The notes below the pieces were generated by a model that made no database searches, was not told the origin of the DNA, and saw only the letters and a program-made list of their open reading frames with translations. Shown here piece after piece: positions 4,980 to 32,399 of a stretch of DNA of 37,701 nt. The stretch's first letter is position 1, and each line of letters starts with the position of its first letter. The stretch spans positions 1 to 37,701 of the forward strand of contig JBBTYK010000007.1 of NCBI GenBank assembly GCA_038061815.1. The letters are read 5' to 3'. The position numbers and the translations under genes are program-made. This DNA comes from Patescibacteria group bacterium. GTDB lineage: Bacteria; Patescibacteriota; Patescibacteriia; Magasanikbacterales; JBBTXJ01.

Positions 4980-6335
4980 ATGCGGAAATGGATTATCCTT
5001 TTGTTTGTGTTGTTGCCGCTTCCGGCTCGCGCGGCGACATTCAATCCGGGAAACGTCATCTCGGATTTTGAATTGACGGATTACCTCTCCATGGGCCGCG
5101 ACGCCATTCAGACGTTTTTGGAAAATAAGAGTAGTTTTCTGGCGCGTTTCAAGGCGCCGAACGTGAACGAAACGCTTTTTGACGCCGCGCAAATCATCTA
5201 CGATGCCGCAATCACGCACAAAATCAGTCCGAAATATATTCTGGCGCTTCTGCAAAAAGAACAAAGTCTCGTTGAACACGGCCCGTCAAATCCGTCACAA
5301 AATCAGTTGGATTGGGCGACGGGCTACGCGCTGTGCGACTCATGCAGCGTCAATGACCCGCTGCCGCAAAAATACAAAGGATTCGGCAAACAAGTGGACG
5401 GCGGCGCCGGCGCGAACCGTTTCTATTTTGATAATCCCAACAAATTCGGCTTCCGCATCGGCGTAACGAGTCAGGTTGACGGTACGGCGGTGACGCCGGA
5501 AAACCAGGCAACCGCGAACCAATACATTTATACGCCGCACCTTCAGGGCAACGAAAACTTGTGGAAAATTTGGAATCGCTGGTGGACCAAAAAATTTCCC
5601 AACGGCGTAGTGCTTCGCGCAAAAGACACCGAAGAACTCTGGCTCATTAAAGACGGCAAACGGCTTAAATTCGCCAGCCGCGGCATCTTCTTGAGCCGCT
5701 ACAACCTCAACGAAATCATTGACGTCCCCGCGGCCGAATTGCAGCAATACGACGAGGGCGCGGTCATTAAATTCCCCAATTATTCGCTCGTCAAATCGGA
5801 ACGCGGCATGACGTTTTTGCTGGTTGACGACACCAAACGGCCGTTTTTGAGCGATGCGGTATTCAAAAAACTCGGCTATCATCCGGATGAAGTGGTCGCC
5901 GCAACCGATGAAGAGCTGACGGAATACAAAAATGGAAAATTCATCAGCGATGCAGACCTTTTTCCGCTCGGCGCCGTGGTGAAAAGCCCGCTTTCCGGCG
6001 AATTGTTTTACGTGCATAATGGAGAAAAAGCGCCAGTCGTGAGTGATGCGATTGTCAAAAATCGTTTTCGCAAACAGAAAACGGTGAATATCGCAGCGGA
6101 CCAGCTCACATCGTTCAAATTGGTCGCCGCGGTTAAATTCCGCGAGGGGACGCTCGTCAAAGGCGCGGACGACAAAACGGTGTACGTCATTTCCGATGGA
6201 ATGAAACGGCCCGTCCTATCCGAAGCAACCTTTCTCGGCATGGGGTGGAAATGGGGAAATGTGCAGACGGTTGACCGGTTGAGTTTGCTCATACATCCGA
6301 CTGGTCCAAGGATTGAATTGAATGTTGTTAATTGA
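4980..6335 (+). CDS. Secreted protein: signal peptide, N-terminal domain with a cell-wall-hydrolase-like motif, and four ~55-aa C-terminal repeats
   Basis: Signal peptide MRKWIILLFVLLPLPARA/AT. The segment ISPKYILALLQKEQSLV resembles motifs seen in peptidoglycan-hydrolase accessory domains. Four repeats of the pattern G.lvK....ly.i.dG.krP.....f...g......v....l, starting at VVLRAKDTEELWLIKDGKRLKF, YSLVKSERGMTFLLVDDTKRPF, GAVVKSPLSGELFYVHNGEKAPV and GTLVKGADDKTVYVISDGMKRPV. Confidence 0.7.
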   Translation: MRKWIILLFVLLPLPARAATFNPGNVISDFELTDYLSMGRDAIQTFLENKSSFLARFKAPNVNETLFDAAQIIYDAAITHKISPKYILALLQKEQSLVEHGPSNPSQNQLDWATGYALCDSCSVNDPLPQKYKGFGKQVDGGAGANRFYFDNPNKFGFRIGVTSQVDGTAVTPENQATANQYIYTPHLQGNENLWKIWNRWWTKKFPNGVVLRAKDTEELWLIKDGKRLKFASRGIFLSRYNLNEIIDVPAAELQQYDEGAVIKFPNYSLVKSERGMTFLLVDDTKRPFLSDAVFKKLGYHPDEVVAATDEELTEYKNGKFISDADLFPLGAVVKSPLSGELFYVHNGEKAPVVSDAIVKNRFRKQKTVNIAADQLTSFKLVAAVKFREGTLVKGADDKTVYVISDGMKRPVLSEATFLGMGWKWGNVQTVDRLSLLIHPTGPRIELNVVN

Positions 6336-9706: not shown

Positions 9707-11233
9707 GTGTACACTACCACCATGTCCCAATTCACGCGCTACACCCTGTTTTTTACAGCCGCGTTTCTGACTTTGCACGGGCTCTCGCTCCTCTCGTTTT
9801 TTGTTGAGCCGCTTCGGCCGGTGTTATTTTTTGTCTTGCTTGGAGCGGCGGCAGTTCTCGCGTTTTGGAAACCGGCGTACGCTGCGGTGCCTATTATTCT
9901 TGAACTACTCCTTGATTCAAGCGGCCATTTGTTTGAATGGCGCGGATTGTCGTTGCGATTACTGGTGTTCATCGTGACAATGGCCGTATGGACATTTCAC
10001 GCCATACGGCGCAAAGCACTATTGAAACAATTGCACACGCCATTTACCGCCATCTACGGCGCGATACTCGTTATCGTGGCGCTTGCGGCATATAACGGCT
10101 ATCTCAATGGACATGCGGTACGCGCAGTTATCGCCGACGCAATTCCGTTTTTGTATTTGGCGTTGTGGTATCCGTTACGCGCATTATTCCCTGAGCGAAG
10201 CGAAGCGGAGTCGAAGGGCAACGCTTCGACAAGCTCAGCGCACAATGTATTGGTACCACTCCTCCTCGGCTCCTTTCTCGGCGCCGCCATTCTTTCTCTC
10301 ATTGCGCTATTTCTTTTTTCATCCGGTTTGCAAGAAATCCACGGGCCGTTTTACACATGGTGGCGCGATTGGGTAGCCGGTAAAGCAACGAGCACGGGAT
10401 TTGGGTTTTATCGTATCGTAACGCCGTTGCATTTATTTTTGACCGCGCTGGTGCCGTTTGTTGTATATGTCATCCTTAAAATCCGAACTGAAGGAACTCT
10501 TCCCGTCATTGCGAGGAGTGAGTCCGACGAACGACGAAGCAATCTAATTATTAGATTGCTTCGCTTCGCCCGCGGCTTCGCTCGCAATGACAAATTATGG
10601 CTTCTTATCATCATCCTCCTCGTCCCCGTCATCAACTTCTCCCGCATCTATTTTCTCGCCATTATTCCAGCGACACTCATCATGGCATTAAAATTGCCGT
10701 GGAAAAAAGTGGCGCTAACGCTTATCATCATTGGCGCCGTTTCGCTTGCAGAATATGCTGTCGTCAATCTTGCGGCCTCGCGCGGGACATCGCTCGGTTT
10801 TGAATTTTTGACACAACAATCCCGTGGCATTATTGACCCGGAATCAGAAGCGTCGGCCTCCGCGCGCGCGGCCATACTCCCCCATTTGCTCGGGAAAATA
10901 AAAAACCGCCCGCTCTTGGGCGAAGGACTTGGCGCATCAGTCACGTATTACAATGCGTTTCTGGAAAAAGAGTCAACCACGCGGCATCTTGATTGGGGGT
11001 ATCTGGAACTTGCCGTGGAATTCGGCCTGTTTGTTGCCTTGTTCTTCCTTGGACTTCTCGTTTGGCTGTTTTATCACGGTTTTCGGAATCCTCTTGCCGC
11101 CAGTATTCTGGTTTTCCTTGCCGTGACGGCACTCACCACCCCCGCTTTGTTTCATGTGTACGGAATTACGCTTATTTTAGCGGTTTTATTGGCAACCAAC
11201 TTACTAAAACTTGACAAAGTTCAACAAGTATGA
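9707..11233 (+). CDS. Polytopic membrane protein, O-antigen ligase/polymerase (Wzy_C)-like
   Basis: 508 aa with about 12 hydrophobic segments. The C-proximal RPLLGEGLGAS motif is typical of O-antigen ligase-like proteins. The track start at 9707 is GTG. An ATG at 9722 (MSQFTRY) sits 7 nt after a TACACT -10-like hexamer and may be the true start. Confidence 0.65.
   Translation: MYTTTMSQFTRYTLFFTAAFLTLHGLSLLSFFVEPLRPVLFFVLLGAAAVLAFWKPAYAAVPIILELLLDSSGHLFEWRGLSLRLLVFIVTMAVWTFHAIRRKALLKQLHTPFTAIYGAILVIVALAAYNGYLNGHAVRAVIADAIPFLYLALWYPLRALFPERSEAESKGNASTSSAHNVLVPLLLGSFLGAAILSLIALFLFSSGLQEIHGPFYTWWRDWVAGKATSTGFGFYRIVTPLHLFLTALVPFVVYVILKIRTEGTLPVIARSESDERRSNLIIRLLRFARGFARNDKLWLLIIILLVPVINFSRIYFLAIIPATLIMALKLPWKKVALTLIIIGAVSLAEYAVVNLAASRGTSLGFEFLTQQSRGIIDPESEASASARAAILPHLLGKIKNRPLLGEGLGASVTYYNAFLEKESTTRHLDWGYLELAVEFGLFVALFFLGLLVWLFYHGFRNPLAASILVFLAVTALTTPALFHVYGITLILAVLLATNLLKLDKVQQV
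10189..10243 (+). repeat. GC-rich repeat inserted in-frame (ccctgagcgaagcgaagcggagtcgaaggg + cgcttcgacaagctcagcgcac)
   Basis: Encodes PERSEAESKGNASTSSAH in a loop of the membrane protein. The first half belongs to the same family as 22631-22660, 12311-12356 and 11797-11828. Confidence 0.75.
10505..10591 (+). repeat. 87-bp palindromic element inserted in-frame (11-bp terminal inverted repeats GTCATTGCGAG/CTCGCAATGAC; central 13-bp perfect hairpin)
   Basis: gtcattgcgag...CGAAGCAATCTAA tta TTAGATTGCTTCG...ctcgcaatgac. Arms were checked by hand. 87 nt is 29 codons, read as VIARSESDERRSNLIIRLLRFARGFARND. Confidence 0.85.
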
Positions 11234-19186: not shown

Positions 19187-19597
19187 CTAATCGCGGTACA
19201 CCCAGTAATTATACAGCAAAAAATTCCAACTGACAGAAAGCGCGACAGTGGTGATGCGGACAATTTGGTAATGAATGCCGAGCATATCGTGTCCGAGGTA
19301 CATGAAGACGATGCTGACCACATAATTTCCCGCAAGAACGACAAGGAATTTTGCGAGCTGGCGATGCGTTGATGTCGCGGTGCTTTTGAACGACCAGTGG
19401 CGGTTCATGAAAAATACGTACGCTATCACCAGTATCTGCGTTCCAAAAAGCGCGATGACCGGCCGAATACCGAAGTATTCTTTTGCGACATACAACAGCC
19501 CAACGTCCATAACGAGGCCGGTAATGCCCGTGAAAAAATAACGCGCAAAGGTTGCTTTCTTTGCGTGAATCCACGCGATGATGTTTGAGATGTTCAT
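19187..19597 (-). CDS. gtrA: GtrA-family membrane protein (polyisoprenol-linked sugar translocation-associated)
   Basis: 136 aa with 4 TM segments. ARYFFTGITGLVMDVGLLY and FFMNRHWSFKS are GtrA-like motifs. Confidence 0.8.
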   Translation of the reverse strand: MNISNIIAWIHAKKATFARYFFTGITGLVMDVGLLYVAKEYFGIRPVIALFGTQILVIAYVFFMNRHWSFKSTATSTHRQLAKFLVVLAGNYVVSIVFMYLGHDMLGIHYQIVRITTVALSVSWNFLLYNYWVYRD

Positions 19598-21402
19598 TTC
19601 TTTTGATTTGCCGTCACGATTGCTTTAATACGCCGCACGCCGGCGGACACCGCTTCCTCTTTCAAAATCTTAAAACCGCCCAGTTCGCCCGTATGTTCCA
19701 CGTGCGGACCGCCGCAGATTTCTTTTGAAAAAAATCCGCGCTTTTCATCTCCTACAAAATACACTTTCAGTTTATTGCCAAACGTGGCGTATTTGTCGTC
19801 AAAATAACCGATGGCGCCGCACGCGCGCGCTTCTTTTTCCGTGAGTTCTTCAAAATGAACCGGCAAGTCCTTTTTAATTTGCTCGTTCACGATGTCTTCT
19901 ATTTCTTTCAATTTCTCGGCCGGAATTTTCTCCCCGTAGTTGAAATCAAAACGCAGGCGCTCCGCGGTAATGTTACTCCCCTTTTGTTCTATGGATTCAC
20001 CGAGCACGTTTTTGAGCGCACGATGGAGCAGATGCGTTGCGGTGTGAAGCTGCACCACTTCAAGACTATGGTTTGCAAGTCCGCCCGCAAATTTTTGTTC
20101 CGCGCCTTTACGCGAGAGTTCCTGATGTTTTTTGAATTCCGCTTGAAAACCTGCGGCGTCAACCGTAATACCGCGTTCTTTCGCCATTTCCTGCGTTACC
20201 TCAAACGGAAATCCGTGCGAGGTGAATAAATCAAACGCAGCTTTGCCGCTCACCGTTTTTTCCTTCGCGACAATCCGTTCAAACTCGCGCAAACCTTTTT
20301 CAAGCGTTCTATTGAATTTTTCCTCTTCGCGCTGCAGTTCCTCCGCAATGCGCTTCTTGTTGTGTCCCAATTCCGGATACGCAGCGGTGTATTCCTGCGC
20401 CACGATCTCGCCGATGTCACGCGCAAACGATTGCGTAATGCCCAATTTTTTACCGTGCATGATGGAGCGGCGAATGAGACGTCGCAACACATATCCTTGG
20501 TCAACATTTGACGGCGTTACACCGCGCTGGTCGCCCAAAATAAATGCGGCGGTGCGAAGATGGTCGGCAATCACGCGCATAGACCAGCGTGTTTTCGGGT
20601 CATCCGTATAATTTTTGCCGGACAGTTCTTCAATCTTATGCAGGATGGGTAAAAACAAATCGGTTTCAAACGGCGACTTTTCGCCGTTCAACACCGCCAC
20701 CACGCGGTCAAGTCCCATGCCAGTGTCCACGTTTTTCTGTTTGAGTGGTTTGAATGAACCGTTTGCTTGCTTATCGTACTCCATGAAAACGTCATTCCAG
20801 ATTTCAACCCACTGTTTGTTATCGGTATCAAACTTTTTTGGCGCAACGCCACCGCCTGACCAATAAAACATTTCCGTATCCGGCCCACACGGCCCCGTTT
20901 GTCCCGCCGGACCCCACCAGTTATTTTCTTTCGGCAAATACGCGATGCGTTCTTTCGGTATGTCAAGTGTCTGCCACAATTTTGCGGACTCTTCATCGCG
21001 AGGCGCGTCTTTATCGCCCGCAAACACGGAAACCGCTAATTTTTCAAGCGGAATGCCGAGCCATTTTCTGCTCGTCAAAAATTCAAAACTCCACGCAATG
21101 GCTTCTTTTTTGAAATAATCGCCGAGCGACCAGTTGCCGAGCATCTCAAAAAACGTGAGGTGCGTGTCATCGCCCACTTCTTCAATATCGCCGGTGCGGA
21201 TGCACTTTTGCACGTTCGCAAGCAGGGTGCCTTCCGGGTGTTTTTCACCCAAAAGATACGGCACCAGCGGATGCATGCCGGCGGTGGTGAAAAGCACGGT
21301 AGGGTCATTTTCCGGAATAAGCGAAGCGGACGGGATAATGGCGTGGCCCTTCTCTTTGAAGAAATCAAGATATTTTTTGCGGAGTTCTGCGGCGGAAAGC
21401 AT
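19594..21402 (-). CDS. alaS: Alanyl-tRNA synthetase, short form (catalytic + tRNA-recognition + editing domains; no C-Ala domain)
   Basis: N-terminus LRKKYLDFFKEKGHAIIPSASLIPENDPTVLFTTAGMHP. Editing-domain zinc ligands HTATHLLHRAL and CGGPHV. It is 602 aa and ends about 25 aa after the CGGPHV motif. Confidence 0.93.
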   Translation of the reverse strand: MLSAAELRKKYLDFFKEKGHAIIPSASLIPENDPTVLFTTAGMHPLVPYLLGEKHPEGTLLANVQKCIRTGDIEEVGDDTHLTFFEMLGNWSLGDYFKKEAIAWSFEFLTSRKWLGIPLEKLAVSVFAGDKDAPRDEESAKLWQTLDIPKERIAYLPKENNWWGPAGQTGPCGPDTEMFYWSGGGVAPKKFDTDNKQWVEIWNDVFMEYDKQANGSFKPLKQKNVDTGMGLDRVVAVLNGEKSPFETDLFLPILHKIEELSGKNYTDDPKTRWSMRVIADHLRTAAFILGDQRGVTPSNVDQGYVLRRLIRRSIMHGKKLGITQSFARDIGEIVAQEYTAAYPELGHNKKRIAEELQREEEKFNRTLEKGLREFERIVAKEKTVSGKAAFDLFTSHGFPFEVTQEMAKERGITVDAAGFQAEFKKHQELSRKGAEQKFAGGLANHSLEVVQLHTATHLLHRALKNVLGESIEQKGSNITAERLRFDFNYGEKIPAEKLKEIEDIVNEQIKKDLPVHFEELTEKEARACGAIGYFDDKYATFGNKLKVYFVGDEKRGFFSKEICGGPHVEHTGELGGFKILKEEAVSAGVRRIKAIVTANQKK

Positions 21403-21459: not shown

Positions 21460-21491
21460 TTTTACACAACCTTCCTGGAAGGAGGAACACT

Positions 21492-21917
21492 ATGGCGAGC
21501 GGTAGCGAGTGGAAAGAGGTGGAGATCGTAGGGCCGAGCACGCGCGAAGCGCACAAGGAGGTGTTCCGGTTTCGAGCGCTGGTGCCGCACGATTTCAAGG
21601 ACCTGAAGGAGCGTAGCGGCCCGCACTGGGCCGTCTGCATCACCGCTCCTGGCGGGGAGAGCGTGACGGTGCTGGACAACGAAGGCGAGGTGCACTTTTT
21701 CTCCAAGGTCCTCAAGGTCGTTGCCGAGATGCTCTACGGTGCGGAGCTCTACCGTCTGGACGCGCAAGTGGAGCGCGTACCGAACGGGATGGGTCATCCC
21801 TATCCGGGAATCGCGATGTCCCTTCGTGGCACCGCGGAACGGGGACAGCCCAAGCTGACCACGAAGTTCCGTCCAGACAACGGCGGCATCGGCGTGGAAG
21901 TGGAAATCACCCGCTAG
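21492..21917 (+). CDS. Hypothetical protein, 141 aa, no recognisable family; atypical composition
   Basis: The start ATG is 7 nt after a strong SD (ggaaggagg). It has its own promoter and terminator. In the first 60 nt I counted 39 G+C, against 27 of 60 for the adjacent alaS. Lys codons are 7 AAG to 1 AAA, whereas neighbouring genes favour AAA. Confidence 0.65.
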   Translation: MASGSEWKEVEIVGPSTREAHKEVFRFRALVPHDFKDLKERSGPHWAVCITAPGGESVTVLDNEGEVHFFSKVLKVVAEMLYGAELYRLDAQVERVPNGMGHPYPGIAMSLRGTAERGQPKLTTKFRPDNGGIGVEVEITR

Positions 21918-21926
21918 AGACGAACG

Positions 21927-21975
21927 CGCCGAGTGTGATTCTTGCGAAAGCAGGAATTGCCTCGGCGTTTTTTTA
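21927..21975 (+). terminator. Rho-independent terminator (CGCCGAG...ATTCTTGC gaaa GCAGGAAT...CTCGGCG + T7)
   Basis: A long hairpin, 7-bp outer stem and 8-bp inner stem with one G-U pair. It is followed by tttttttatt, whose last bases overlap the mnmA stop codon (rc of tta at 21973-21975). Confidence 0.75.
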
Positions 21976-23064
21976 TTGAATGACTCCCCCACCCAAACAT
22001 TCGTCGTTTTTGTAAAACACCGCAAACTGGCCGGGCGTGATGGCGCGCTGGGATTTTGAACAAATAACGAGGATATTTTTTCCTTGTTTCTGGATGGTGC
22101 ACCGCTGTAATTCCTGGCGGTGGCGGAAGCAAACAGCGCAGGTAAACGGCAAAACAGGCGCCTCAACAATCCAGTGTACATCCCCTACAGTAATTTCACG
22201 TGTAAATAAGCGTGAATCATTTTCCGGTCCAACGATGAGTTCGTTTTTCTTACTATCTTTTGCAACAACATACTGCGGCTTCCCGTTACTTTTTTGCGCC
22301 AGTCCGTGCCGCTGGCCGATGGTGTAATATGCCAAACCATCGTGCTCTCCAATCACCGCGCCGGCCGTCGTAACAATTTTTCCCGGCTTCGGCTTGATTT
22401 TCTGTTTCAAAAAATCCTTCATGTTGATTTCGCCGATAAAACACACGCCCATTGACTCCGCGCGTTCCGCGGTTGGCAAACCAAATTTCCGCGCAAGGGC
22501 GCGAACCTGCGGCTTGGTGTAGTCCCCAATGGGAAACAATGTGTTGGCAAGCTGCGCTTGAGTGAGTTGGTGAAGGAAGTAGGTTTGGTCTTTATTGCGG
22601 TCTTTGGATTGGAGGAGATGGTATCGTATACCCTTCGACTCGCCTCCGGCTCGCTCAGGGACTAATTTTGCATAATGCCCTGTCGCAATTTTGTCCGCGC
22701 CCAGTTTTTTTGCGGCCTTTAAAAACGACCCGAATTTTACCGTTGTGTTGCAGACAACATCCGGATTTGGCGTGCGGCCGGCGCGATATTCGCGGAACAA
22801 ATAATCCACCACGCCTTTGCGATATTCTTTTTGAAAATCCAACACCACAAGCGGAATGCCGAGGCGCGCCGCCACGCGCTCCGCATCACGCACATCATTC
22901 TTCCAATCACAAACACCCTGCACGTCTTTCGTATCCGTCCAGTTTTTCATGAAGGCGCCAACCACCTGATGCCCTGCGCGCACCAGAAGCGCCGCAGTCA
23001 CCGATGAATCAACGCCGCCTGACATGGCAACAATAATTTTATTCCGCACTTTCTTCGCCCGCAT
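21973..23064 (-). CDS. mnmA: tRNA-specific 2-thiouridylase (tRNA U34 2-thiolation)
   Basis: PP-loop IIVAMSGGVDSSV, then GHYA.., and C-terminal QFAVFY..ECLGGGVI. I place the start at ATG 23064 (MRAKKVRNKIIVAMSGG). The track's 47-aa N-terminal extension is not MnmA-like. Confidence 0.93.
   Translation of the reverse strand: MRAKKVRNKIIVAMSGGVDSSVTAALLVRAGHQVVGAFMKNWTDTKDVQGVCDWKNDVRDAERVAARLGIPLVVLDFQKEYRKGVVDYLFREYRAGRTPNPDVVCNTTVKFGSFLKAAKKLGADKIATGHYAKLVPERAGGESKGIRYHLLQSKDRNKDQTYFLHQLTQAQLANTLFPIGDYTKPQVRALARKFGLPTAERAESMGVCFIGEINMKDFLKQKIKPKPGKIVTTAGAVIGEHDGLAYYTIGQRHGLAQKSNGKPQYVVAKDSKKNELIVGPENDSRLFTREITVGDVHWIVEAPVLPFTCAVCFRHRQELQRCTIQKQGKNILVICSKSQRAITPGQFAVFYKNDECLGGGVIQ
22631..22660 (+). 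repeat. GC-rich repeat inserted in-frame in mnmA (cccttcgactcgcctccggctcgctcaggg)
   Basis: On the coding (minus) strand it reads cct gag cga gcc gga ggc gag tcg aag ggt, which is PERAGGESKG. It is 30 nt, or 10 codons. Confidence 0.75.
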
Positions 23065-23104: not shown

Positions 23105-24580
23105 TCACGGCACTCGGGCGGATGCCGTGCCGGAATACGGAGAATTGCCGATGCGATTGTATGCACGCACGCGATAGTAATACACGCCTGCCGGCAAACC
23201 GGCATCCGCGTATGAGGCGGTTAAAGCACCATCAAGAGAGGCAACCTGAATGAAACTCTGCTCGTCAACGCCGCGCTCCAGCAAAAATCCTTCCGTGTTC
23301 GTCGTGCTCCTCGTCCATGTTGAAACGAGAATGGTGGTACTCGCGGTTACGCGGAGATTCGCAGGAGCGCCGGGCGCGCGCGTATAACGAACCAAACGAT
23401 TACTGGCGGCGTACGTGGCGGAGCGGCCGCGCGCATTTGAGGCATAGATACGATAAGATAATCCGTCATCCGATGGTGCGCGGCGGTCAACATACGATGT
23501 GGTATTCGCCAGCGCGAACGATACATCGCGCACCGAACCGCGGTCATCGAAACGTTCAATGCGGAATTCCTGTTCATTTGTTGAATGGTCAATCCACTGA
23601 ATCACAACACCCTCATTAGTAGATGACGCGGCGGCGTTCGTGGGCGCTGCCGGCGGATTCACGGCATTTACTGCCGCAACTACCCCCGAAGACGCTGAAA
23701 AACCGACCAAATTAAACGCGCGAACACGATACTGTATCGTTTGGTCGCGCGGAATTGCATTGTGTTGATATGATGTCGCATTTGCCGCCGGACGCGCGAG
23801 TTCTGCCCATGGGCCGTCTGGACCGGTTACGCTTGATTCTACGACAAAACCATCTTCATTATTCGCGTTGTCACGCCAACGCAACATATTGGCAGCATTC
23901 TGATTCGTCGCGCGCAACTCTGTCGGCGCAGCCGGCAGCAACAATGGCCGATATTTCAAACGCACCGCAACGCGGCTCACGCGAGCGCCCAATGCCCCTC
24001 CGGCATATTCAAAACCAACCTGTAACGTACTTGTGGCCACCTTGGTAAAAACCGCTCTGCCCGTAAGAAAAACAGCAGATAATTCCACCGGCTCAACTCC
24101 TGATGCTCGCACCTTTCTTCCGCTGACAACGCGGCCGTTATTGATACGAGCGAGTGTGGTTATTTCACTTCGCGTATTGCCCTCGCTTGCGTTTGACGCG
24201 CACAATCGCATCTCAATAGCGGTTACTTGAGCAAAATCTGGAACGCGCCCAATGTCAACGGTAAATAATTCCTTTTTGCGGGCAGTCAATGTGGAAAGAT
24301 GTGTCGCCGTTCCATCACACGCTTCTTCGTTCACCATCGTCGCATGAACATCAGTCCCCTCAACAGACGGCGCCCATTCATTTTTGACGCCATCGCTAAT
24401 GGGCAAAAGCGTTTCGCTGTATAGCAACGCCGGAACTCTCGCGACTCCCTGGGCTTTGGATACGCGCGGCTGTAAGGAAACTGATACAAGGTTGGTGGTT
24501 ATTAAACTCACGCCAAGTACAAGCAACGCCGCGAAACCTATCTTTTCGCCGATACTAAAAAGTGGGGTCTTCTTTTTCAT
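23105..24580 (-). CDS. Membrane-anchored/secreted surface protein with three fibronectin type III-like repeats
   Basis: N-terminal hydrophobic anchor IGFAALLVLGVSLITT. Three ~95-aa repeats each start with P.AP(T/A)(E/N)L.. and end with a Y(R)V(R)A.N..G.S strand: IQYRVRAFNLVGFS, LSYRIYASNARGRS, YYYRVRAYNRIGNS. A strong SD (aaaggagg) precedes the ATG. Confidence 0.8.
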   Translation of the reverse strand: MKKKTPLFSIGEKIGFAALLVLGVSLITTNLVSVSLQPRVSKAQGVARVPALLYSETLLPISDGVKNEWAPSVEGTDVHATMVNEEACDGTATHLSTLTARKKELFTVDIGRVPDFAQVTAIEMRLCASNASEGNTRSEITTLARINNGRVVSGRKVRASGVEPVELSAVFLTGRAVFTKVATSTLQVGFEYAGGALGARVSRVAVRLKYRPLLLPAAPTELRATNQNAANMLRWRDNANNEDGFVVESSVTGPDGPWAELARPAANATSYQHNAIPRDQTIQYRVRAFNLVGFSASSGVVAAVNAVNPPAAPTNAAASSTNEGVVIQWIDHSTNEQEFRIERFDDRGSVRDVSFALANTTSYVDRRAPSDDGLSYRIYASNARGRSATYAASNRLVRYTRAPGAPANLRVTASTTILVSTWTRSTTNTEGFLLERGVDEQSFIQVASLDGALTASYADAGLPAGVYYYRVRAYNRIGNSPYSGTASARVP

Positions 24581-24645: not shown

Positions 24646-25371
24646 TTACTGAAGCAACGAAATAATCTTTTGTATCAAAGCCGGGTCGGTTTTGAACAAA
24701 TCCGTCCCATGCGCCGAACCGCGATAGCGCAAAACCTCCGGCTCAACCGCTACCATGCGGCCAGCGAGCGTATTGACGGTATCAAATGAGTACGTATCTC
24801 CTTCTGCCGCCGCGAGCAACACCTTTTGAAAGGGCGCGATGTGCACACCGGCGCGTTCAGCGTTCACGCCGCGATATTCAAGACCCGGCGACAGCGCTAC
24901 GATAGCCGGTATCTTGGTATGTTCAGAGCCGTACACCATCGCGAGATTTGCGCCGATGCTCGCGCCGACGAGCGCAATCGTTTCTTCACGAGCGCCTTTT
25001 TCTTTCAGCCATGCGACTGCGGCTTCAACATCGCGCATCTTTGCCTGTTGTTCCGTATCGGAAAATTTTTTGTAATCAAGCGCGCCGCCCTGCGATGCGA
25101 TACTCTCTCCATGTCCGCGAAAATCTATTGCGAGCGATGCCACACCCGCCGTCTGTAACGCTTCCGCAAGCGGATGCCAACTTTCTTTGGAGGCCGGCAT
25201 CATGTGCAAGAGGAGCACAAAACGTTTGGACTCTGGCGCCGCATACCAATTCCCGACAATCGTGATTCCATCGCTCGTTTGAAATGAAATTTTTTCCATA
25301 GTAAGTGGTGATTTAGCGCAGCCGAAACCAAGCAATAACAAAATACTAATAAACAGGACTGCTTTTCCCAT
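24646..25371 (-). CDS. Secreted alpha/beta-fold hydrolase (dienelactone-hydrolase/S9-like)
   Basis: Signal peptide MGKAVLFISILLLLGFGCAKS, nucleophile elbow GASIGA (G-x-S-x-G), and HG near the C-terminus (GSAHGTD). I place the start at ATG 25371, which overlaps the tdk 3' end by 26 nt. The track's longer N-terminus is not hydrolase-like. Confidence 0.75.
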   Translation of the reverse strand: MGKAVLFISILLLLGFGCAKSPLTMEKISFQTSDGITIVGNWYAAPESKRFVLLLHMMPASKESWHPLAEALQTAGVASLAIDFRGHGESIASQGGALDYKKFSDTEQQAKMRDVEAAVAWLKEKGAREETIALVGASIGANLAMVYGSEHTKIPAIVALSPGLEYRGVNAERAGVHIAPFQKVLLAAAEGDTYSFDTVNTLAGRMVAVEPEVLRYRGSAHGTDLFKTDPALIQKIISLLQ

Positions 25372-26029
25372 ATGGATTCTCCAGAATGACGGGTTGGCGT
25401 AAGGCGACCGTCGGCAGCGGGCATACTTTTCCAGGCACCATGTGATGCCGAACACAGCGCGCTTCGTATGATTCTTGCGAACCGATCATTTTGATGGGGT
25501 CGGAATACTGCGCAGGTTCGCCGCCGACGAGCCGTTGCGTGCGCGTTGCTTCGCGGCCGCAGCGTTCACCCGCATCACTGCGATACGTGCACACCGCGGA
25601 CAATTTCACAATAAAATCCGCGCGCACCAACAGATCCGCCATAGTGCGGGTGGAACCAAACCCAAACGGAAACGGCTCGCCGCGAAAATCCAAATTGAGT
25701 CCGGCGGCCATCACGCGCTTCCCCTGGTCAACGAGATGGCTGATGTAGTCAATGATGACGTCGTCAAAGAATTGAACCTCGTCAATAACGATAAACTGCG
25801 TTTCCGGCTGTACCAGCGCGATGAGGTCGCGGGTCCGACAAACCGGTATCGCCTGCATGTCGCTGCCGTCGTACGATGCCAGTTTGCCGCGCTGCGCATA
25901 ACGCGCATCCTCGCCAAAATTAAACAATTGCATTTCTTTTTCTGCAATCTGTTCCCTCCTAATCTGCCGAATCAATTCCGTGGACTTGCCGCTGAACATC
26001 GGACCGGTAATGACGGTGAGGGTGCTCAT
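25346..26029 (-). CDS. tdk: Thymidine kinase
   Basis: MSTLTVITGPMFSGKSTELIR (P-loop), VIDEVQFF (Walker B), and the zinc-ribbon-like C-terminal part C..R..C.. of type II TK. Confidence 0.93.
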   Translation of the reverse strand: MSTLTVITGPMFSGKSTELIRQIRREQIAEKEMQLFNFGEDARYAQRGKLASYDGSDMQAIPVCRTRDLIALVQPETQFIVIDEVQFFDDVIIDYISHLVDQGKRVMAAGLNLDFRGEPFPFGFGSTRTMADLLVRADFIVKLSAVCTYRSDAGERCGREATRTQRLVGGEPAQYSDPIKMIGSQESYEARCVRHHMVPGKVCPLPTVALRQPVILENPYGKSSPVY

Positions 26030-26042
26030 ACCGGTAGTGTAC

Positions 26043-27656
26043 CTATTTCTTCAAATCTTGCAATGAGATGCCCGGCGCGTTTGGGTCAACGATGATGACA
26101 TTCTCAATCTGCCGCGAAGGCTGCAACTGACGCGGCTGACCACCGCTCTGCGGTTGACCGCCGTCTTTCTTTTTATGATGACGCTTGCGCTTATGGCGCG
26201 CGCCGTCAGGAGACGCCGCAGTATACGATGGAACGCCAGGGACAACAACGACCGGCCGCGGCGGAGGCGGCAGCACCTTGATAATCTCAATCCCCGCTTC
26301 CTCATCGTTCTCATCACGACGCGGCGTTACCGGCTGTCCGGGCGCCAGTTCACCAAATCCGCTCCATCGCGCAACTTTTTCTTCAATGACCTGCCGGCTG
26401 CGGCCATACCGTTCGCGCGAAACCGCAATCACCCTCTCCGTGCTCCCCGTGCGCTGCGCAATGGGCGGCAGCGTCAAGGCCGAGAACGGCTGCGACGCCA
26501 CGCCGTCAATCATAAGCCGCAAATAAATCTGATACTTCGGCAGATTCACGAGGTCAACAATCAAAAATTGCGGGTCAAATTCTTTTTCCAGCGCCTCGGC
26601 GTCCTCCGCGCCGATGCGGAAGGTAATCAGCGTTCCCACGTTGCCGAACACCGCATAGCGCACTTCTTCCGTCAGCTGCTCAATATACTGGTGCGCCATG
26701 ATGAGACTCAAATGATACTTGCGCGCTTCTGACAAAATGTTCGCGAACGACTCGGTGGCGAAATTTTGAAACTCGTCAACGTACAGGAAAAAATCCGGCC
26801 GCTCCGCTTCCGGCATATCCACGCGTTCCATCGCGGACAACTGAATTTTCGTGACAATCATGCCGCCCAACAATCGCGAATTATCCTCACCGATGCGTCC
26901 CTTTGACAGGTTCACAATCAAAATCTTGCCGCTATCCATAATTTCGCGGATATTGATGGTTGACTTCACCTGCGCGACGATATTGCGGATGACGGACGCG
27001 GACAAAAACTGTCCGATTTTGTTCTGAATGGCTGCGGTGGCTTCCGATGCAAACTTATCTGTGTACTTTGCGTATTCATCAACCCAGAACGCTTTTACCA
27101 CCGGGTCTTTGATTTGCGCAACCACCTTTTTACGATACACGGCATCGGCGAAAATCCGGTTGACGCCGAGCAACGTGCTTCCCGGACAATCCATGAGCGC
27201 CAGAATGGCGTTGTTCAGCAAATACTCCATACGCGCGCTCCACTGGTCAACCCAGATTTTTTTGAACACGCCCATGAGGCCACCGACCACCAAATGTTTG
27301 TGGTCAGGATTGATGGTTTCCAAAATGTTGAACCCGATTGGATATTCTAAATCGGCTGGATTGAAATACACCACGTCGTTAATGCGGTGAGGCGGAACGA
27401 AATCAATCATTTTTTCCGCGAAATCGCCGTGCGGGTCAACGAGCGCAAATCCGTGGCCGGCATACATATCCGACAACACCATATTTTCCAGCATCGTGGT
27501 CTTTCCCATGCCGGTTTTTCCGAGCACATACATGTGCCGCCGCCGGTCATCCAGTTTAATGCCAAAACGCCGGTTCTCATTCCGGAAGTTCGTCTGCGCA
27601 AACAGAGCGATGTCTTTTGTCACAACGGGTGTATGCAACGTTTGCATATTAAACAA
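26043..27656 (-). CDS. FtsK/HerA-superfamily P-loop ATPase, type IV secretion coupling protein (VirD4/TraD/TraG)-like, without N-terminal TM segments
   Basis: Walker A HMYVLGKTGMGKTT (nt 27498-27521) is followed by ALVDPHGDF. Walker B plus the TraG-D_C-like block is FFLYVDEFQNFATESFANILSEARKYHLSLIMAHQYIEQL...VFGNVGTLITFR. The C-terminal tail is Pro-rich and basic (HKRKRHHKKK). Its start overlaps the stop of the upstream gene by 8 nt. Confidence 0.8.
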   Translation of the reverse strand: MFNMQTLHTPVVTKDIALFAQTNFRNENRRFGIKLDDRRRHMYVLGKTGMGKTTMLENMVLSDMYAGHGFALVDPHGDFAEKMIDFVPPHRINDVVYFNPADLEYPIGFNILETINPDHKHLVVGGLMGVFKKIWVDQWSARMEYLLNNAILALMDCPGSTLLGVNRIFADAVYRKKVVAQIKDPVVKAFWVDEYAKYTDKFASEATAAIQNKIGQFLSASVIRNIVAQVKSTINIREIMDSGKILIVNLSKGRIGEDNSRLLGGMIVTKIQLSAMERVDMPEAERPDFFLYVDEFQNFATESFANILSEARKYHLSLIMAHQYIEQLTEEVRYAVFGNVGTLITFRIGAEDAEALEKEFDPQFLIVDLVNLPKYQIYLRLMIDGVASQPFSALTLPPIAQRTGSTERVIAVSRERYGRSRQVIEEKVARWSGFGELAPGQPVTPRRDENDEEAGIEIIKVLPPPPRPVVVVPGVPSYTAASPDGARHKRKRHHKKKDGGQPQSGGQPRQLQPSRQIENVIIVDPNAPGISLQDLKK

Positions 27657-29154
27657 CAGGCAAGTTGGGCGGCGGAGCGCCGGTTGCTTCTGCGGGCGCC
27701 TCGTGAGGCGCGGCGGCGGGGGCAGAGGCGCTCTCCCCTTCGTGCGGATGTCGTTTCTTATGAATCAATCCGATATCAGAACTGAACGGCGGCGGCGCTT
27801 CCGCGGTTGCCGATTTAATGGGAATACCGTGCGGCGCATCCTCAAACGGAATCTCCGTCGGCAAATATGACGGCGGCTGGGCGCGCTTCGCCTCAAGACG
27901 TTTCAACAGCGGCGTCTTCACCGTCATCACCGGGAAGTGCCACAACGTAGCCAGTTCTTCCGTGTTCAAAATAAATTCGTACCGTCCGGCCCACGTGCTC
28001 CGTTTTTGATACGCTCGCATGATTTTGGTGGCGCGGATATTTTTACGCGCCTCGGTAAAAACATAATGCGCGGCAACACCGGTCATTTTGTAATCCGGTT
28101 TCAAACTATTTGACGATTCATCGGAGAACTGTTTGATTGCGCCCACCAATCCATACATCACGCGGCTCTTGTCAAAACGCTCTTTCTCCGCCACATACAC
28201 CGCGCGCATTTTGCAGTTGAATCCAATTTTTGACACCTTAATTTCAACATCTTCAATAGTTTTCCGCTCGCCGGGCGTCAGCGCAAACATGCCAAAGGTC
28301 AGCTTCTCTTCCTTGGCCGACTCGGCGAACAATTCCAGCCCGAACCCGCTCGCAATCTCGCGCACGAGCGCAAACGGAAGGTCGCTCAATTTTTGAATCC
28401 ACGTTTCCTTTTTCTTCACTTCTTTCCCCATCAATTTTTTTGCCATTTCAAACCCTTTCGCTTTCCATGACTGCCCGATAGGTTTCACTAAAATCTGCAA
28501 CCACATCTGCTCCCCTTTCCCGATGCGGCTGAAGGATTCCAGCAACGCCGCCATCGGGTCCTTAAAGTATTCTTTGTCGTTCGGGTCGGCGAACGCTTTG
28601 TACGTTTTAATGGGGTAGTAGTGATTTTCCGTCAAGACCCATTCTACGCCCCAACAGCTATGAGTATCATTGGGATATTCAGTGGGAATACCTTTTACAT
28701 AATCCTCCACTTCGGTAATTTCCGCGTCGGGATACTGCGCATAAATGGCGGATTCCACGAGGTCGCGATATTTCTTCTCCGTGCGAATGAGAAACTGGGT
28801 GTATCCTTCAATGCTGACAATCTCAAAACTAAACCATCGCTGGTACTGTCCTTGCCAATATTTTTCCATGAGGTCTCGCGTGGCATGGCCGCCGGCAAGG
28901 TGCGCAAAGATATTTTCTACGGCGAGCGGCGACTGCACGTTATCTGATGGAACGTCAACGGCAAGCAATACCCACTGAAATCCGGACTGATATTTTCCAA
29001 CGCGCGTGTTGTAAAACACATAAAACCCCATCCAAAAAACGATAGGAAACAAGAAAATCCATCCGCCGATGCGTGTGCCGAATACGAGCACATCCCACGT
29101 GCTCGCCGTCGCTGCCATGTCGAGAAATTGCAGCCACGCGTCAGCGTATGACAT
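27649..29154 (-). CDS. Membrane-anchored protein of unknown function (501 aa), translationally coupled to the coupling-protein-like ATPase
   Basis: There is one clear N-terminal TM segment (GGWIFLFPIVFWMGFYVFY), then a ~380-aa soluble region (FSFEIVSIEGYTQFLIRTEKKYRDLVESAIYAQYPDAEI...), then a Pro/Ala-rich tail. I recognise no family motif. It lies 3 nt after the upstream small gene. Confidence 0.7.
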   Translation of the reverse strand: MSYADAWLQFLDMAATASTWDVLVFGTRIGGWIFLFPIVFWMGFYVFYNTRVGKYQSGFQWVLLAVDVPSDNVQSPLAVENIFAHLAGGHATRDLMEKYWQGQYQRWFSFEIVSIEGYTQFLIRTEKKYRDLVESAIYAQYPDAEITEVEDYVKGIPTEYPNDTHSCWGVEWVLTENHYYPIKTYKAFADPNDKEYFKDPMAALLESFSRIGKGEQMWLQILVKPIGQSWKAKGFEMAKKLMGKEVKKKETWIQKLSDLPFALVREIASGFGLELFAESAKEEKLTFGMFALTPGERKTIEDVEIKVSKIGFNCKMRAVYVAEKERFDKSRVMYGLVGAIKQFSDESSNSLKPDYKMTGVAAHYVFTEARKNIRATKIMRAYQKRSTWAGRYEFILNTEELATLWHFPVMTVKTPLLKRLEAKRAQPPSYLPTEIPFEDAPHGIPIKSATAEAPPPFSSDIGLIHKKRHPHEGESASAPAAAPHEAPAEATGAPPPNLPVV

Positions 29155-29157
29155 GCG

Positions 29158-29325
29158 CTAATCCGGAATAAGAAAACTAAAAATGGTAATAAATACCACC
29201 GGCAAAAAAATGAGCGCCATCCACCACCATCCTTGCTGGCCCGCGTAGTATGAGCCGACAAACACCACAAAAAACAGCAGGGTGGCGAGGGTTGAATAAA
29301 TTGCGCGCCAAACTCGGTCCTCCAT
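29158..29325 (-). CDS. Small two-TM membrane protein (55 aa from ATG 29325; the track gives an 83-aa version from a GTG at 29409)
   Basis: MEDRVWRAIYSTLATLLFFVVFVGSYYAGQQGWWWMALIFLPVVFITIFSFLIPD has two hydrophobic helices. The longer GTG-initiated version would start inside a 10-bp perfect hairpin, so I prefer the ATG. Confidence 0.5.
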   Translation of the reverse strand: MEDRVWRAIYSTLATLLFFVVFVGSYYAGQQGWWWMALIFLPVVFITIFSFLIPD

Positions 29326-29409: not shown

Positions 29410-29452
29410 ACCTTATAACGACAGTATACCACAACAACGAGGCTGTGGAAAA

Positions 29453-30347: not shown

Positions 30348-32399
30348 TTATTCAACTTTTTTACGCGCGCCGAGCACGAGCCACGTTCCTTCTTTGATGT
30401 ACGGCTCAAGAAAACGCATGAATACGCGCGTAACGGTAATGGCGGAAAACATGCTCACGAGCACGCCGATGGCGAGCGTCACCGCGAATCCGCGCACCAC
30501 GCTCGTGCCGAACCAATACAAAATGGCGCAGGCAATCAACGTGGTGACGTTGCCATCGCGAATAGCCAGCCATGCACGCGCAAATCCTTCGGTCACTGCG
30601 CGCGCATACGTCCTGCCGTCGCGCAGTTCCTCTTTCATTCGTTCAAAAATGAGAATGTTCGCGTCAACCGCCATGCCGAACGACAAAATGAGACCCGCGA
30701 TGCCGGCGAGCGTTAGCGTCACCGAAAGTAATTTGAACAGCGCAAGCAGTACCAATCCATACACGATAAGCGCCAAGCCGGCCATCACACCCGACAATCG
30801 GTAATACAAAATCATAAACAACAGCACGAGCAAAAGTCCAACGATGCCGGCGCGCAGACTTTTTATGAGCGATGCGTGTCCCAAAACCGGCCCCACGGTT
30901 GATTGGCTCACAAGCTGTACCGGCAGCGGCAGCGCGCCAGCGTTCAGGCGCTGCGCAAGCGTCTTCGCTTCGTCAATGGAAAAACTGCCGGTAATCACGG
31001 CCTGACCGCCGCTGATTTTCTGCTGTACGGTTGGAGCGCTGATGATTGAACCGTCAAGAAAAATTGCCACTGGTTTGCCGATATTGCGGCCGGTGATTTC
31101 TTCAAACAAATCGCCGCCTTCATTATCAAATTGAAGTCCAACCTGCACCTCGCCGGTTTGCTGGTCAAACTGCACGGTCGCGCGGTCAAGCTGTCTTCCT
31201 GACAATGCTGTCCGCAGCCATGGGTCAAGTTCCGGCGCGATTTCCTCCGCCGTGGTGCGGTCAATCATGATATGGCGCGCCTCATACTGCTTTTCCTTGA
31301 GCTGCGCGTATTTATAAACGAGGTGAAAACCAAACGGCGTTTCCACAGGGTCGGAAATGGCGCCTTCCGGCAACGCAAAGGCAGCCTCTTCAAAATTGGG
31401 CGTCATCGCGCCGCGTCCGAATTCGCCGAGGTCGCCGCCAAGCTGCGCGCTACCGGAATCATCGGAATTTTTTTGAGCGAGTTCCGAAAAGTTGGCGATG
31501 GTCGCCTGCGCGCGAAGAGATTGCGCCTTTTCCAGCGCTTCGTCGCGCGTTCTATCCGATTGACATCGTTCCGCGCCTTGAAAACACACAAGGATATGGC
31601 GCGCAGAAACGGAACTGACCGCCACCCGTTCGCTTTCCACTTTGATGATGTGATACCCGATGTCGCTCTCCAATATATCGCGCGCCACCGCGCCCACCCT
31701 TCCTTTTTGCTGCGCAAACTGATAGAGCTGCTTTTGCAGCGTTTCTCCGGCAGAACTGACGAACCCAATATATCCGCCGCTCTCTTTCGTTTTTACATCC
31801 TGTGAAAATTCCTTCGCGTAATCGGCAAAATTTTTCGCACCTGACAGTACGATATTCAAAACTTCTTTCGCTTTTTTGCGCTCCGCGTCATTCGCGTCGC
31901 CGAGCTGTTTTTTCTGCGCATCCGTCAACTCCGGCTGCGGATTAGGATTTTGTTCCTTAAATTCAAGCAACGGCGTTTCGCCGATTTCCTTGATTGCCTG
32001 TTTCAAATCAATGACGCCAGGTAAATCCACGATGACGCGATACGTTTCGCCCGATACGTTGGTCTGCACAAGCGGTTCGGAAACGCCCATGGCATTCACG
32101 CGGCGTTCAATAACATCGCGCGCGCCGGCAACCGCGTCATCGCGCTCCGATGAAGGCACGCCTTTCGTGTCCACTTCATAGGTGAGATGCGCGCCGCCCT
32201 GCAAATCAAGACCCAAACGGTAATCTGGAATGTTCGGCTGCGGGAGCGAAAGGCCCGAACGCGCCTTTATTGCGCCGACAAGACGCTCATACGGCGCCGG
32301 AAAATCAAAAACGAGCGCTCCGAACATCAGCACAAGAATACCGAACAGCGCCCACTTGACGTTCATTCGGCTCATTTGTTTTGATTCCTGCTTTTGCAT
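30348..32399 (-). CDS. secD: Protein translocase subunit SecD with two parvulin-type PPIase domains inserted in the periplasmic P1 head
   Basis: SecD signatures: LGLDLQGG, DGSIISAPTVQQKISGGQAVITGSF, and the TM core GMAVDANILIFERMKEE. Residues ~155-372 contain ARHILV..GGDLGEFGRGAMTPNFEEAAFALPEGAISDPVETPFGFHLVYK (parvulin signature). A preceding degenerate copy is FADYAKEFSQD..SGGYIGFVS......GYHIIKVE. Confidence 0.9.
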   Translation of the reverse strand: MQKQESKQMSRMNVKWALFGILVLMFGALVFDFPAPYERLVGAIKARSGLSLPQPNIPDYRLGLDLQGGAHLTYEVDTKGVPSSERDDAVAGARDVIERRVNAMGVSEPLVQTNVSGETYRVIVDLPGVIDLKQAIKEIGETPLLEFKEQNPNPQPELTDAQKKQLGDANDAERKKAKEVLNIVLSGAKNFADYAKEFSQDVKTKESGGYIGFVSSAGETLQKQLYQFAQQKGRVGAVARDILESDIGYHIIKVESERVAVSSVSARHILVCFQGAERCQSDRTRDEALEKAQSLRAQATIANFSELAQKNSDDSGSAQLGGDLGEFGRGAMTPNFEEAAFALPEGAISDPVETPFGFHLVYKYAQLKEKQYEARHIMIDRTTAEEIAPELDPWLRTALSGRQLDRATVQFDQQTGEVQVGLQFDNEGGDLFEEITGRNIGKPVAIFLDGSIISAPTVQQKISGGQAVITGSFSIDEAKTLAQRLNAGALPLPVQLVSQSTVGPVLGHASLIKSLRAGIVGLLLVLLFMILYYRLSGVMAGLALIVYGLVLLALFKLLSVTLTLAGIAGLILSFGMAVDANILIFERMKEELRDGRTYARAVTEGFARAWLAIRDGNVTTLIACAILYWFGTSVVRGFAVTLAIGVLVSMFSAITVTRVFMRFLEPYIKEGTWLVLGARKKVE

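Follow-up and report, generated by a model that had tools for sequence, protein, structure and literature searches.

The sequence examined here, called the window below, is a stretch of 37.7 kb (contig JBBTYK010000007.1, positions 1 to 37,701) from a member of the Patescibacteria, and this study concerns three genes lying on its minus strand between secF and tdk, which we will call the trio: a gene for a small transmembrane (TM) protein, a gene for a protein of the DUF8128 family and a gene for an ATPase of the type IV coupling protein (T4CP) kind. We showed that the DUF8128 and ATPase genes represent a split gene, the fused equivalents of which encode proteins of about 810 to 910 amino acids. 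On balance, we lean toward a scenario in which the trio encodes a single machine made of three parts, namely a split T4CP that belongs to the DUF8128 subfamily and serves as the coupling or translocation motor of a type IV secretion system (T4SS) encoded elsewhere.

The small membrane protein (29158..29325, minus strand) has 55 amino acids when read from the ATG at 29325, in which case it begins with MEDRVW, or 83 if the GTG at 29409 is used; the internal ATG at 29325 is the start used by its homologues. Reading the junction directly, we found 3 nt between its stop codon and the ATG of the DUF8128 gene (27649..29154, minus strand; 501 amino acids). The ATPase gene (26043..27656, minus strand) encodes 537 amino acids from a TTG, or 534 from the ATG at 27647 which is the start in public gene calls; the 501-residue gene, which ends in TAA, shares 8 nt with the ATPase gene when the TTG is taken as start, and a single nucleotide separates the two with the ATG (TAAtATG). 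The ATPase gene is followed after 13 nt by tdk (25346..26029), and on the other side the gap from secF to the 83-residue reading of the small open reading frame (ORF) is just 43 nt. Between secF and the small gene, a consensus scan found a promoter-like site with 9 of 12 matches (TTTCCA-17-TATACT with an upstream TG, 29423..29451, minus strand), a weak indication that the trio may possess a promoter of its own. The numbers of homologues (more than 2,800 for the 501-residue protein and more than 8,000 for the ATPase) and, for the small protein, a motif conserved in at least 28 relatives show that these are real genes, and the same genes are present in metagenomes of Hainich groundwater. An earlier reading of this DNA from its letters alone (the original prediction) had described three coupled minus-strand genes with these junctions, motifs and TM counts, and at this level its statements hold.

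A split coupling protein and its fused relatives

The ATPase is a genuine T4CP of the VirD4/TrwB type, nearest to TrwB and devoid of a membrane anchor of its own. It exceeds the Pfam cut-offs of TrwB_AAD_bind (38.3 bits vs 20.5), T4SS-DNA_transf (23.8 vs 20.1) and TraG-D_C (24.7 vs 22), as well as the gathering score of DUF87. The closest solved sequences returned by a PDB sequence search are DotL and TrwB, and a profile of 60 ATPase sequences compared by hhalign with TrwB of plasmid R388 (reference sequence NC_028464) aligned over 264 columns (94% probability, E 1.4e-7), a stretch that starts at Walker A, includes the all-alpha domain and reaches Walker B; with the VirB4 of R388 (TrwK), the same profile aligned at the P-loop only. 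The AlphaFold2 (AF2) model of the ATPase (pLDDT 80) found its best Foldseek match in TrwBdeltaN70 (E 1e-12, TM-score 0.61-0.65), followed by HerA, DotL and Cag-beta, and VirB4 was not among its top 50 structural matches. By hydropathy the protein has no TM segment, TrwB giving two in the same test. Both the assignment to the T4CPs and the missing anchor had been put forward in the original prediction, and the Pfam, profile and structural comparisons bear out the former as hydropathy does the latter. The scores against NCBIfam equivalog models were far under their cut-offs (CD1115 38.7 vs 250; TraD 38 vs 366; CD1115, TraD and TrbC together 36-39 vs 250-800), so the ATPase belongs to no named T4CP subfamily. 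The FtsK_SpoIIIE motor domain also remained below threshold, reaching 16.2 of the required 24 bits in a match confined to residues 40-63. A candidate that we tried and rejected was the C-terminal domain of a split VirB4: the protein matches the T4CP type, and neither AAA_10 nor CagE_TrbE_VirB was matched at E<=1. TrsE was matched weakly and in part (68% probability, 87 columns), which reflects no more than membership of the same superfamily.

Along the minus strand, the ATPase presents a Walker A motif, GKTGMGKT, at residues 46-53 (27498-27521), then VDPHGDF at residues 73-79 (27420-27440), an all-alpha domain at residues 117-241 (26934-27308), which is all helical in the AF2 model, Walker B within FFLYVDEF at residues 289-296 (26769-26792) and a TraG-D_C-like block, ARKYHLSLIMAHQYIEQL, at residues 311-328 (26673-26726). 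The Walker residues are invariant in 60 homologues. The chain terminates in a disordered basic and proline-rich tail (residues 446-537, 26046-26321), at the end of which lies a conserved motif, VIIVDPNAPGISL (26061-26099), written DPxxxGISL in the family consensus.

Two side observations concern relatives of this protein, which we designate by the locus numbers of our survey. The ATPase tail carries in some of them a zinc ribbon, PF23477 zf_Tbcl_2 (L001:9516-11462 and L003:9404-11254), and in one Magasanikbacteria genome the zinc ribbon is a separate gene of 97 amino acids located two genes downstream of the ATPase (L095:12506-12799). The closest relative outside Patescibacteria is a stand-alone T4CP-like protein of 395 amino acids (41% identity, E 1e-93) from the alphaproteobacterial plasmid NZ_CP081110 of Sulfitobacter mediterraneus (L097:6986-8173), where it sits amid transposases and a recombinase, with neither DUF8128 nor T4SS genes nearby.

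The 501-residue protein had been described as belonging to an unrecognizable family. It is a member of Pfam PF26449 (DUF8128), according to precomputed matches on a 100% identical protein and on nearly all of the 120 homologues listed. This family, which numbers 3,248 clusters at 50% identity, is absent from the local Pfam copy used, and the local Pfam and NCBIfam scans of the protein were blank; we found no mention of PF26449 or DUF8128 in the literature.

The relation between the two larger proteins of the trio became visible in Magasanikbacteria loci that lack an ATPase beside DUF8128, where a fused protein of 839-854 amino acids is encoded about 8 kb off. In the 839-residue protein, the part that matches the DUF8128 profile comprises residues 40-399 (hhalign 99.9%, E 4e-31), and the T4CP domains occupy residues 407-762; by hydropathy, the fused paralog has one TM helix at the N-terminus and no further one. 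A search with this paralog gave 3,224 significant relatives, and all 120 that were listed have about 825-910 amino acids and the combination PF26449+PF10412+PF01935+PF12696. Phages encode the same combination, as phrog_5156, a single phage profile of 824 positions, aligns with the DUF8128 protein of the window at 76-358 (E 7e-17), with its ATPase at 407-804 (E 4e-62) and with the fused paralog from Patescibacteria at 75-808 (E 1.5e-86). In Bacillus phage G, gp156 was recognized through its N-terminal half by Foldseek (E 2e-17) and through its C-terminal half by tblastn (E 2e-38) and hhalign (96.8%); further phage members are gp27.4 of SPO1 and related proteins from CP-51, JL and Shanette. On a plasmid protein of Shouchella clausii (883 amino acids, WP_248290882.1), the DUF8128 and ATPase profiles match one after the other (97.5% and 99.9%), and the 812-residue T4CP of a plasmid from the actinomycete Embleya (WP_331738717.1), for which the N-terminal DUF8128 match is weak (28% probability), probably belongs to the fused family too. 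Both proteins of the window align in order on these fused proteins, which constitute the actual family of the module, and they differ from them in being encoded by two genes and in having an extra small TM partner. Such natural fusions strongly back the earlier suggestion that the 501-residue protein supplies the missing anchor in trans.

In Magasanikbacteria, the fused DUF8128-T4CP protein (about 840-880 amino acids) is a second paralog, found in another housekeeping neighborhood, that of cysS, dnaX and pilM, with flanking ORFs that fall in no family. We located it at L056:18055-20574 (minus strand), L088:10001-12574 and L089:10001-12634, as well as in L064 and L030; on one chromosome of 1.23 Mb, about 10 kb separate it from the stand-alone DUF8128 gene.

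By hydropathy, the DUF8128 protein has a single TM helix near its N-terminus (residues ~22-48; the core, residues 30-48, corresponds to 29011-29067, minus strand). The AF2 model, calculated from 67 homologues (pLDDT 82, pTM 0.74), presents a long N-terminal helix and then alpha/beta subdomains up to residue ~410, and the predicted cytoplasmic alpha/beta domain thus spans residues ~58-410; it is followed by a disordered proline-rich tail with two PPxxLP motifs (27859-27876 and 27658-27675, minus strand). Because the fused paralogs have one N-terminal TM helix and none before the ATPase, this domain faces the cytoplasm, on the premise that the ATPase is cytoplasmic. Compared with the PDB by Foldseek, the model gave 12 matches at E<=0.001 and a thirteenth at 7e-3, all of them chains of full-length TrwK/VirB4 cryo-EM entries, with E from 4e-5, a probability of 1.0 and a TM-score of just ~0.29. 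Weaker matches to ESX EccE-like chains came next. Since the 50 matches listed include no VirB4 structure limited to the C-terminal part, nor TrwB, HerA or any other P-loop ATPase, the match was taken as being to the N-terminal domain of VirB4, which the modeled cytoplasmic domain of DUF8128 would therefore resemble. The gp155 protein of phage G, VirB4-like by Pfam, likewise matches the DUF8128 model. At the profile level, hhalign was negative each time for the comparison of DUF8128 with TrwK of R388, TrsD of pGO1, TrsE and gp155 of phage G, and neither a PDB-sequence profile search nor weak-hit Pfam scans of 67 members returned anything relevant.

The small protein consists of two TM helices and a short loop, as judged by hydropathy, with a G-W-W-W motif in the loop (29221-29232, minus strand). 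The 28 homologues that we aligned begin with MED or MSD, have an invariant W-W and conserve the G-W-W-W loop motif. Among the 80 related loci examined, this gene stands 5' of DUF8128 in about 34-40, which belong to the clade of the window and to Magasanikbacteria. The identification of the small protein as VirB3 was considered and dropped, as hhalign with the 28-sequence profile gave 3.5% probability to TrwM, over the WWW tripeptide only; the probability was 0.3% to TrsC, and the Pfam families VirB3 and PrgI were unmatched. The agreement with VirB3 is limited to gene position and two-TM topology.

Outside Patescibacteria, the neighbors of the fused proteins are informative. On the Embleya plasmid, the order is TrbL_4 (VirB6-like), PrgI (VirB3-like), VirB4, the 812-residue T4CP, a replication-relaxation protein (Replic_Relax, PF13814) and NlpC/P60, and on the Shouchella plasmid the T4CP stands with Replic_Relax, a large ATP-binding protein and proteins of conjugal transfer, while genes for ParM, a primase and a topoisomerase are close by. 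In SPO1 (92636-95356 for gp27.4 and its neighbors), three tiny TM ORFs (gp27.5-27.7) are followed by gp27.4 and by Replic_Relax (gp27.3), with an actin-like ALP gene nearby, and in phage G (gp151-gp156), tiny TM ORFs, TrbL_4 (gp153) and the VirB4-like gp155 precede gp156. The plasmid and phage versions thus adjoin Replic_Relax and, in three cases out of four, also VirB4, TrbL or other conjugal-transfer genes, whereas the versions from Patescibacteria do not. These neighborhoods place the DUF8128-T4CP family in the coupling-protein position of a DNA-transfer apparatus of the Gram-positive type. Our searches found no experimentally known function for the fused plasmid and phage proteins. A Replic_Relax partner was also sought in Patescibacteria and discarded, the genes 3' of the fused paralog showing no resemblance to this family. 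As a separate observation, the large Bacillus phages SPO1 and G carry T4SS-like gene sets.

Conservation and context within Patescibacteria

A scan of species-representative genomes confirmed at least 595 related loci, and the 80 which we examined are titled Magasanik-, Uhr-, Falkow-, Komeili- or Parcubacteria. The order recurring in class ABY1 is secA-secD-secF-(small)-DUF8128-ATPase-...-mnmA-alaS-...-infA-rpsM-rpsK-rpsD. The ATPase gene lies directly 3' of DUF8128 in 47 of the 75 loci with enough downstream sequence (44 found by script and 3 with overlapping starts), and 51 of 68 loci have secF upstream at a distance of 2.5 kb at most, in the same orientation. In one Magasanikbacteria genome, a stand-alone ATPase gene is found 5' of mnmA-alaS, apart from secDF-small-DUF8128. 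This survey agrees with the earlier expectation that the module would be conserved and syntenic in relatives. The median tblastn identity across ABY1 loci is 65% for the ATPase, 59% for SecA, 58% for AlaS, 49% for SecD and 44% for DUF8128, and the ATPase is therefore the most conserved gene of the neighborhood. The proposed link with nucleotide salvage, in contrast, fails: tdk follows the ATPase directly in the two closest relatives only, two further loci have it 2-3 kb downstream, and the remaining ones lack it.

The window itself is a housekeeping region, with clpB, priA, def, fmt, glycosyltransferases, rpoA, rpsD, alaS, mnmA, tdk, secF, secD, secA and murB. Its base composition is even over the 37.7 kb, and neither tRNA genes nor Rfam families were found in it. 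Pfam scans of the ORFs of at least 150 amino acids outside longer assigned ORFs detected no VirB4, VirB6, relaxase, pilin or prepilin peptidase in the window. A scan of IMG/VR viral contigs with close-relative patterns gave no DUF8128 relatives. Together, these data showed that the trio is a vertically inherited, housekeeping-like core set of ABY1-class Patescibacteria and not a mobile element. During the survey, we also noticed that many records of metagenome-assembled genomes (MAGs) from Patescibacteria (L007-L009, L011, L029 and others) are mis-titled 'uncultured Gammaproteobacteria bacterium', which could mislead surveys based on taxonomy.

Proposed role and its alternatives

The T4CP family and the orphan T4CPs of Patescibacteria were already known. 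Quinonero-Coronel et al. (2025) found VirB4 in 2,417 of 3,035 Patescibacteria genomes, and 5,713 VirD4-type T4CP homologues in 2,918 of the same 3,035 (~96%), just 148 of these homologues lying near virB4; they left the role of the T4CPs open and wrote that exaptation 'cannot be ruled out'. The same authors reported that the most abundant T4SS component of the phylum is TrsD, a stand-alone protein remotely homologous to the N-terminal portion of VirB4, and that in class ABY1 the T4SS loci co-localize with comF, recG and radA. For another motor of this superfamily, ftsK, it is known that Saccharibacteria TM7x possesses the gene. We found in this literature no description of DUF8128, of the small partner or of the relation between split and fused forms; the module appears uncharacterized, as the original prediction had supposed, one paper merely noting the orphan T4CPs. 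As far as our searches show, four elements are new: the assignment of DUF8128 as the cognate N-terminal part of these T4CPs; its apparent VirB4-like fold; the split three-gene form with its conserved micro-protein; and the homology to proteins of SPO1, phage G and Gram-positive plasmids encoded beside Replic_Relax.

Set against known T4CPs (VirD4, TrwB, TraD, DotL), the ATPase has the same nucleotide-binding domain with Walker A and B, the same inserted all-alpha domain and the TraG-D_C block, but its polypeptide lacks the two-TM N-terminal anchor, instead of which the window encodes a separate upstream DUF8128 protein (one TM helix and ~350 cytoplasmic residues) and a two-TM micro-protein. 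It also differs in being chromosomal, vertically inherited and unusually conserved, and in standing beside neither VirB genes nor a relaxase. The order of a small TM protein, an N-terminal-domain protein and an ATPase recalls VirB3 and VirB4 (TrwM and TrwK of R388) and TrsD/TrsE of pGO1, and the only significant PDB matches of the DUF8128 model are VirB4; unlike in those systems, the ATPase here is of T4CP type, DUF8128 shows no sequence similarity to TrwK, TrsD or TrsE, and the small protein is not detectably VirB3 or PrgI. A third comparison, with the archaeal Ced system, had been drawn in the original prediction. CedD comprises a TM segment, a VirB4-like N-terminal domain and a HerA/VirB4-like ATPase, and the N-terminal domains of CedB and CedD together make up one VirB4 N-terminal domain. 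The parallel stands for the architecture (a TM segment, a VirB4-like N-terminal domain distributed over two polypeptides and an ATPase of the FtsK/HerA superfamily, with CedA1/A2 as small two-TM partners), as the layout of CedD illustrates, but it does not extend to membership: the NCBIfam CedD model NF053655 scores the ATPase of the window at 28.2 bits vs a cut-off of 600, over residues 15-87 only, around the P-loop. The Ced ATPases belong to the HerA/VirB4 clade and not to the T4CPs, and the operon of the window has no gene for a CedA-like polytopic channel.

In the scenario that we favor, the ATPase would provide the hexamer-forming nucleotide-binding domain and the all-alpha domain of a TrwB/VirD4-like motor. 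DUF8128 would be the missing N-terminal module of this motor, contributing a TM helix and a scaffold similar to the VirB4 N-terminal domain, on which the ATPase would dock at the membrane, and the 55-residue two-TM protein would most likely pack on the TM helix of DUF8128 and so complete the membrane anchor. ATP hydrolysis would then power the delivery of substrate to a chromosomal, relaxase-less T4SS encoded elsewhere. We infer from the comparisons above that the three proteins form a physical complex, that this complex docks on a T4SS and that its substrate is DNA; the last point is probable because the fused relatives adjoin replication-relaxation genes in conjugation clusters and because T4SS loci of ABY1 lie near comF, recG and radA. 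The original prediction saw in the trio a minimal machine with no other T4SS genes, a notion which finds no support, as a VirB4 T4SS is generally encoded at another chromosomal site in Patescibacteria of class ABY1; for the same reason, the absence of T4SS genes from 37 kb tells little.

Several points weigh against this assignment. The window contains no T4SS gene over its 37.7 kb, a replication-relaxation gene is found neither in the window nor beside the paralogs of Patescibacteria, and the link to a T4SS derives from the family to which the proteins belong and from the gene neighborhoods of remote relatives. The likeness between DUF8128 and the VirB4 N-terminal domain is structural only (TM-score ~0.29), with no similarity found at the profile level; about every second related locus lacks the small protein 5' of DUF8128, and the homology of this protein to VirB3 is undetectable. 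An ATPase more conserved than SecA is unusual for a T4CP of the conjugation type. At least 501 of the 3,035 genomes have a T4CP homologue and no detected VirB4, for which incompleteness of MAGs may account in some cases. In Southlakia epibionticum, the t4cp gene is non-essential though the T4SS is essential (Quinonero-Coronel et al., 2025), and the essential T4SS cluster of this species has no recognizable coupling protein or relaxase (Wang et al., 2023).

A different scenario, which we judge considerably less probable than that of a T4SS coupling protein, makes the trio an autonomous membrane translocase working with no T4SS channel. Its conduit would be formed or gated by the TM helix of DUF8128 together with the small protein, or else DNA at the membrane would be what the motor acts on. 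A core machine of Patescibacteria of this kind could serve in DNA uptake, in DNA export or in an FtsK-like clearance of the chromosome. T4CP homologues are indeed more widely distributed than VirB4 and almost never stand beside virB4, the ATPase is under strong purifying selection (a median identity above that of SecA and AlaS), the neighborhood is of the housekeeping type with no marks of mobile elements, and S. epibionticum, with its essential T4SS, can do without its t4cp homologue. CedB and CedD further show that proteins combining a TM segment, a VirB4-like N-terminal domain and an ATPase can drive DNA import with few partners, but the CedA-like polytopic partner is not in the operon of the trio, and three TM helices per protomer are a thin basis for a channel. 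Known T4CPs, moreover, require a VirB-type channel, and the DUF8128-type relatives examined outside Patescibacteria all adjoin VirB4, VirB6/TrbL or conjugal-transfer genes, SPO1 having Replic_Relax only. A bolder version, to which we give somewhat less credence still, makes the module a near-universal, T4SS-independent translocase of Patescibacteria, an 'intermediate' between VirB4 and VirD4 in which the motor of a coupling protein would have retained a VirB4-like N-terminal domain and which, alone with the small TM partner, would carry DNA or nucleoprotein through the membrane of these host-dependent cells or along it; if true, it would offer a living model for the origin of coupling proteins from VirB4-like ancestors.

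The position of the trio behind the sec genes raises the question of a Sec-associated accessory, in which the small protein and DUF8128, with the ATPase, would help SecDF and SecA in export or in the handling of membrane proteins. We consider this improbable. The proximity of secF in 51 of 68 loci and the short distance of 43 nt in the window speak for it, as does the retention of secDF-small-DUF8128 in Magasanikbacteria even where the ATPase has been relocated, but gene order is conserved over the whole murB-rpoA region in these reduced genomes, so adjacency need not imply a common function. The trio is separated from secF by a promoter-like site, no family member outside Patescibacteria is linked to sec genes, and the ATPase fold with its all-alpha domain is typical of coupling proteins for DNA or other substrates. 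The trio could also be taken for the remnant of a decayed conjugative element or prophage, or for an anti-phage defense ATPase of the HerA/mad8 type, given the fused relatives on plasmids and in Bacillus phages, a match of the ATPase to the PADLOC model mad8 (E 3.5e-18) and weakly to HerA models, and the presence of SIR2-HerA, DndH and TdpAB among its more distant Foldseek matches. This is very unlikely and largely refuted by synteny and conservation: the same chromosomal position among housekeeping neighbors recurs in many of the 80 loci, the catalytic motifs are invariant and conservation is high, so that the genes are not decaying, and the window has no integrase, tRNA gene or compositional shift. 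Close relatives of DUF8128 were not found in IMG/VR viral contigs, other partner genes of MADS, SIR2 or Dnd systems are absent from the neighborhood, and DUF8128 and the small protein have no match in PADLOC.

Patescibacteria depend on host cells, and in their sole genetically tractable species the T4SS is essential. The present analysis underscores that the orphan T4CPs of this phylum come with a dedicated DUF8128 module, either fused or split, and in one large clade with a two-TM micro-protein as well, and it ties them to uncharacterized proteins of ~810-910 amino acids from Gram-positive plasmids and from the phages SPO1 and G. The Pfam family DUF8128 thereby gains a role as the N-terminal module of a T4CP subfamily. 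The question of the 'missing coupling protein' becomes testable, culturable Bacillus phage or plasmid homologues being potential models; a new principle is not demonstrated by these data.

Other genes of the window

The window holds three ORFs that fall in no Pfam family at E<1e-3, at 4980-6335 (plus strand, 451 amino acids), 9707-11233 (plus strand, 508 amino acids) and 21462-22181 (minus strand, 239 amino acids). SecD (30348-32399, minus strand) has two parvulin-type peptidyl-prolyl isomerase (Rotamase) domains as an insertion that separates its first periplasmic subdomain from the P1 head, and this fusion is present in every ABY1 relative examined. In the PriA-like protein (6380-8218, plus strand; 612 amino acids), Pfam recognizes the 3'-DNA-binding and Cys-rich domains only, helicase domains being undetected at E<1e-3. 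Alanyl-tRNA synthetase (19594-21402, minus strand) has 602 amino acids, compared with 617-629 in relatives, and consists of the catalytic core and the SAD domain, its C-terminal domain being unmatched. Finally, two proteins, a secreted one containing fibronectin-III repeats and an alpha/beta hydrolase, are encoded between tdk and mnmA (23105-24580 and 24646-25455, both minus strand), and hydrolase-like matches 3' of the ATPase occur in relatives too, by tblastn in L007, L061, L078, L080 and L085 and by Pfam in L096.

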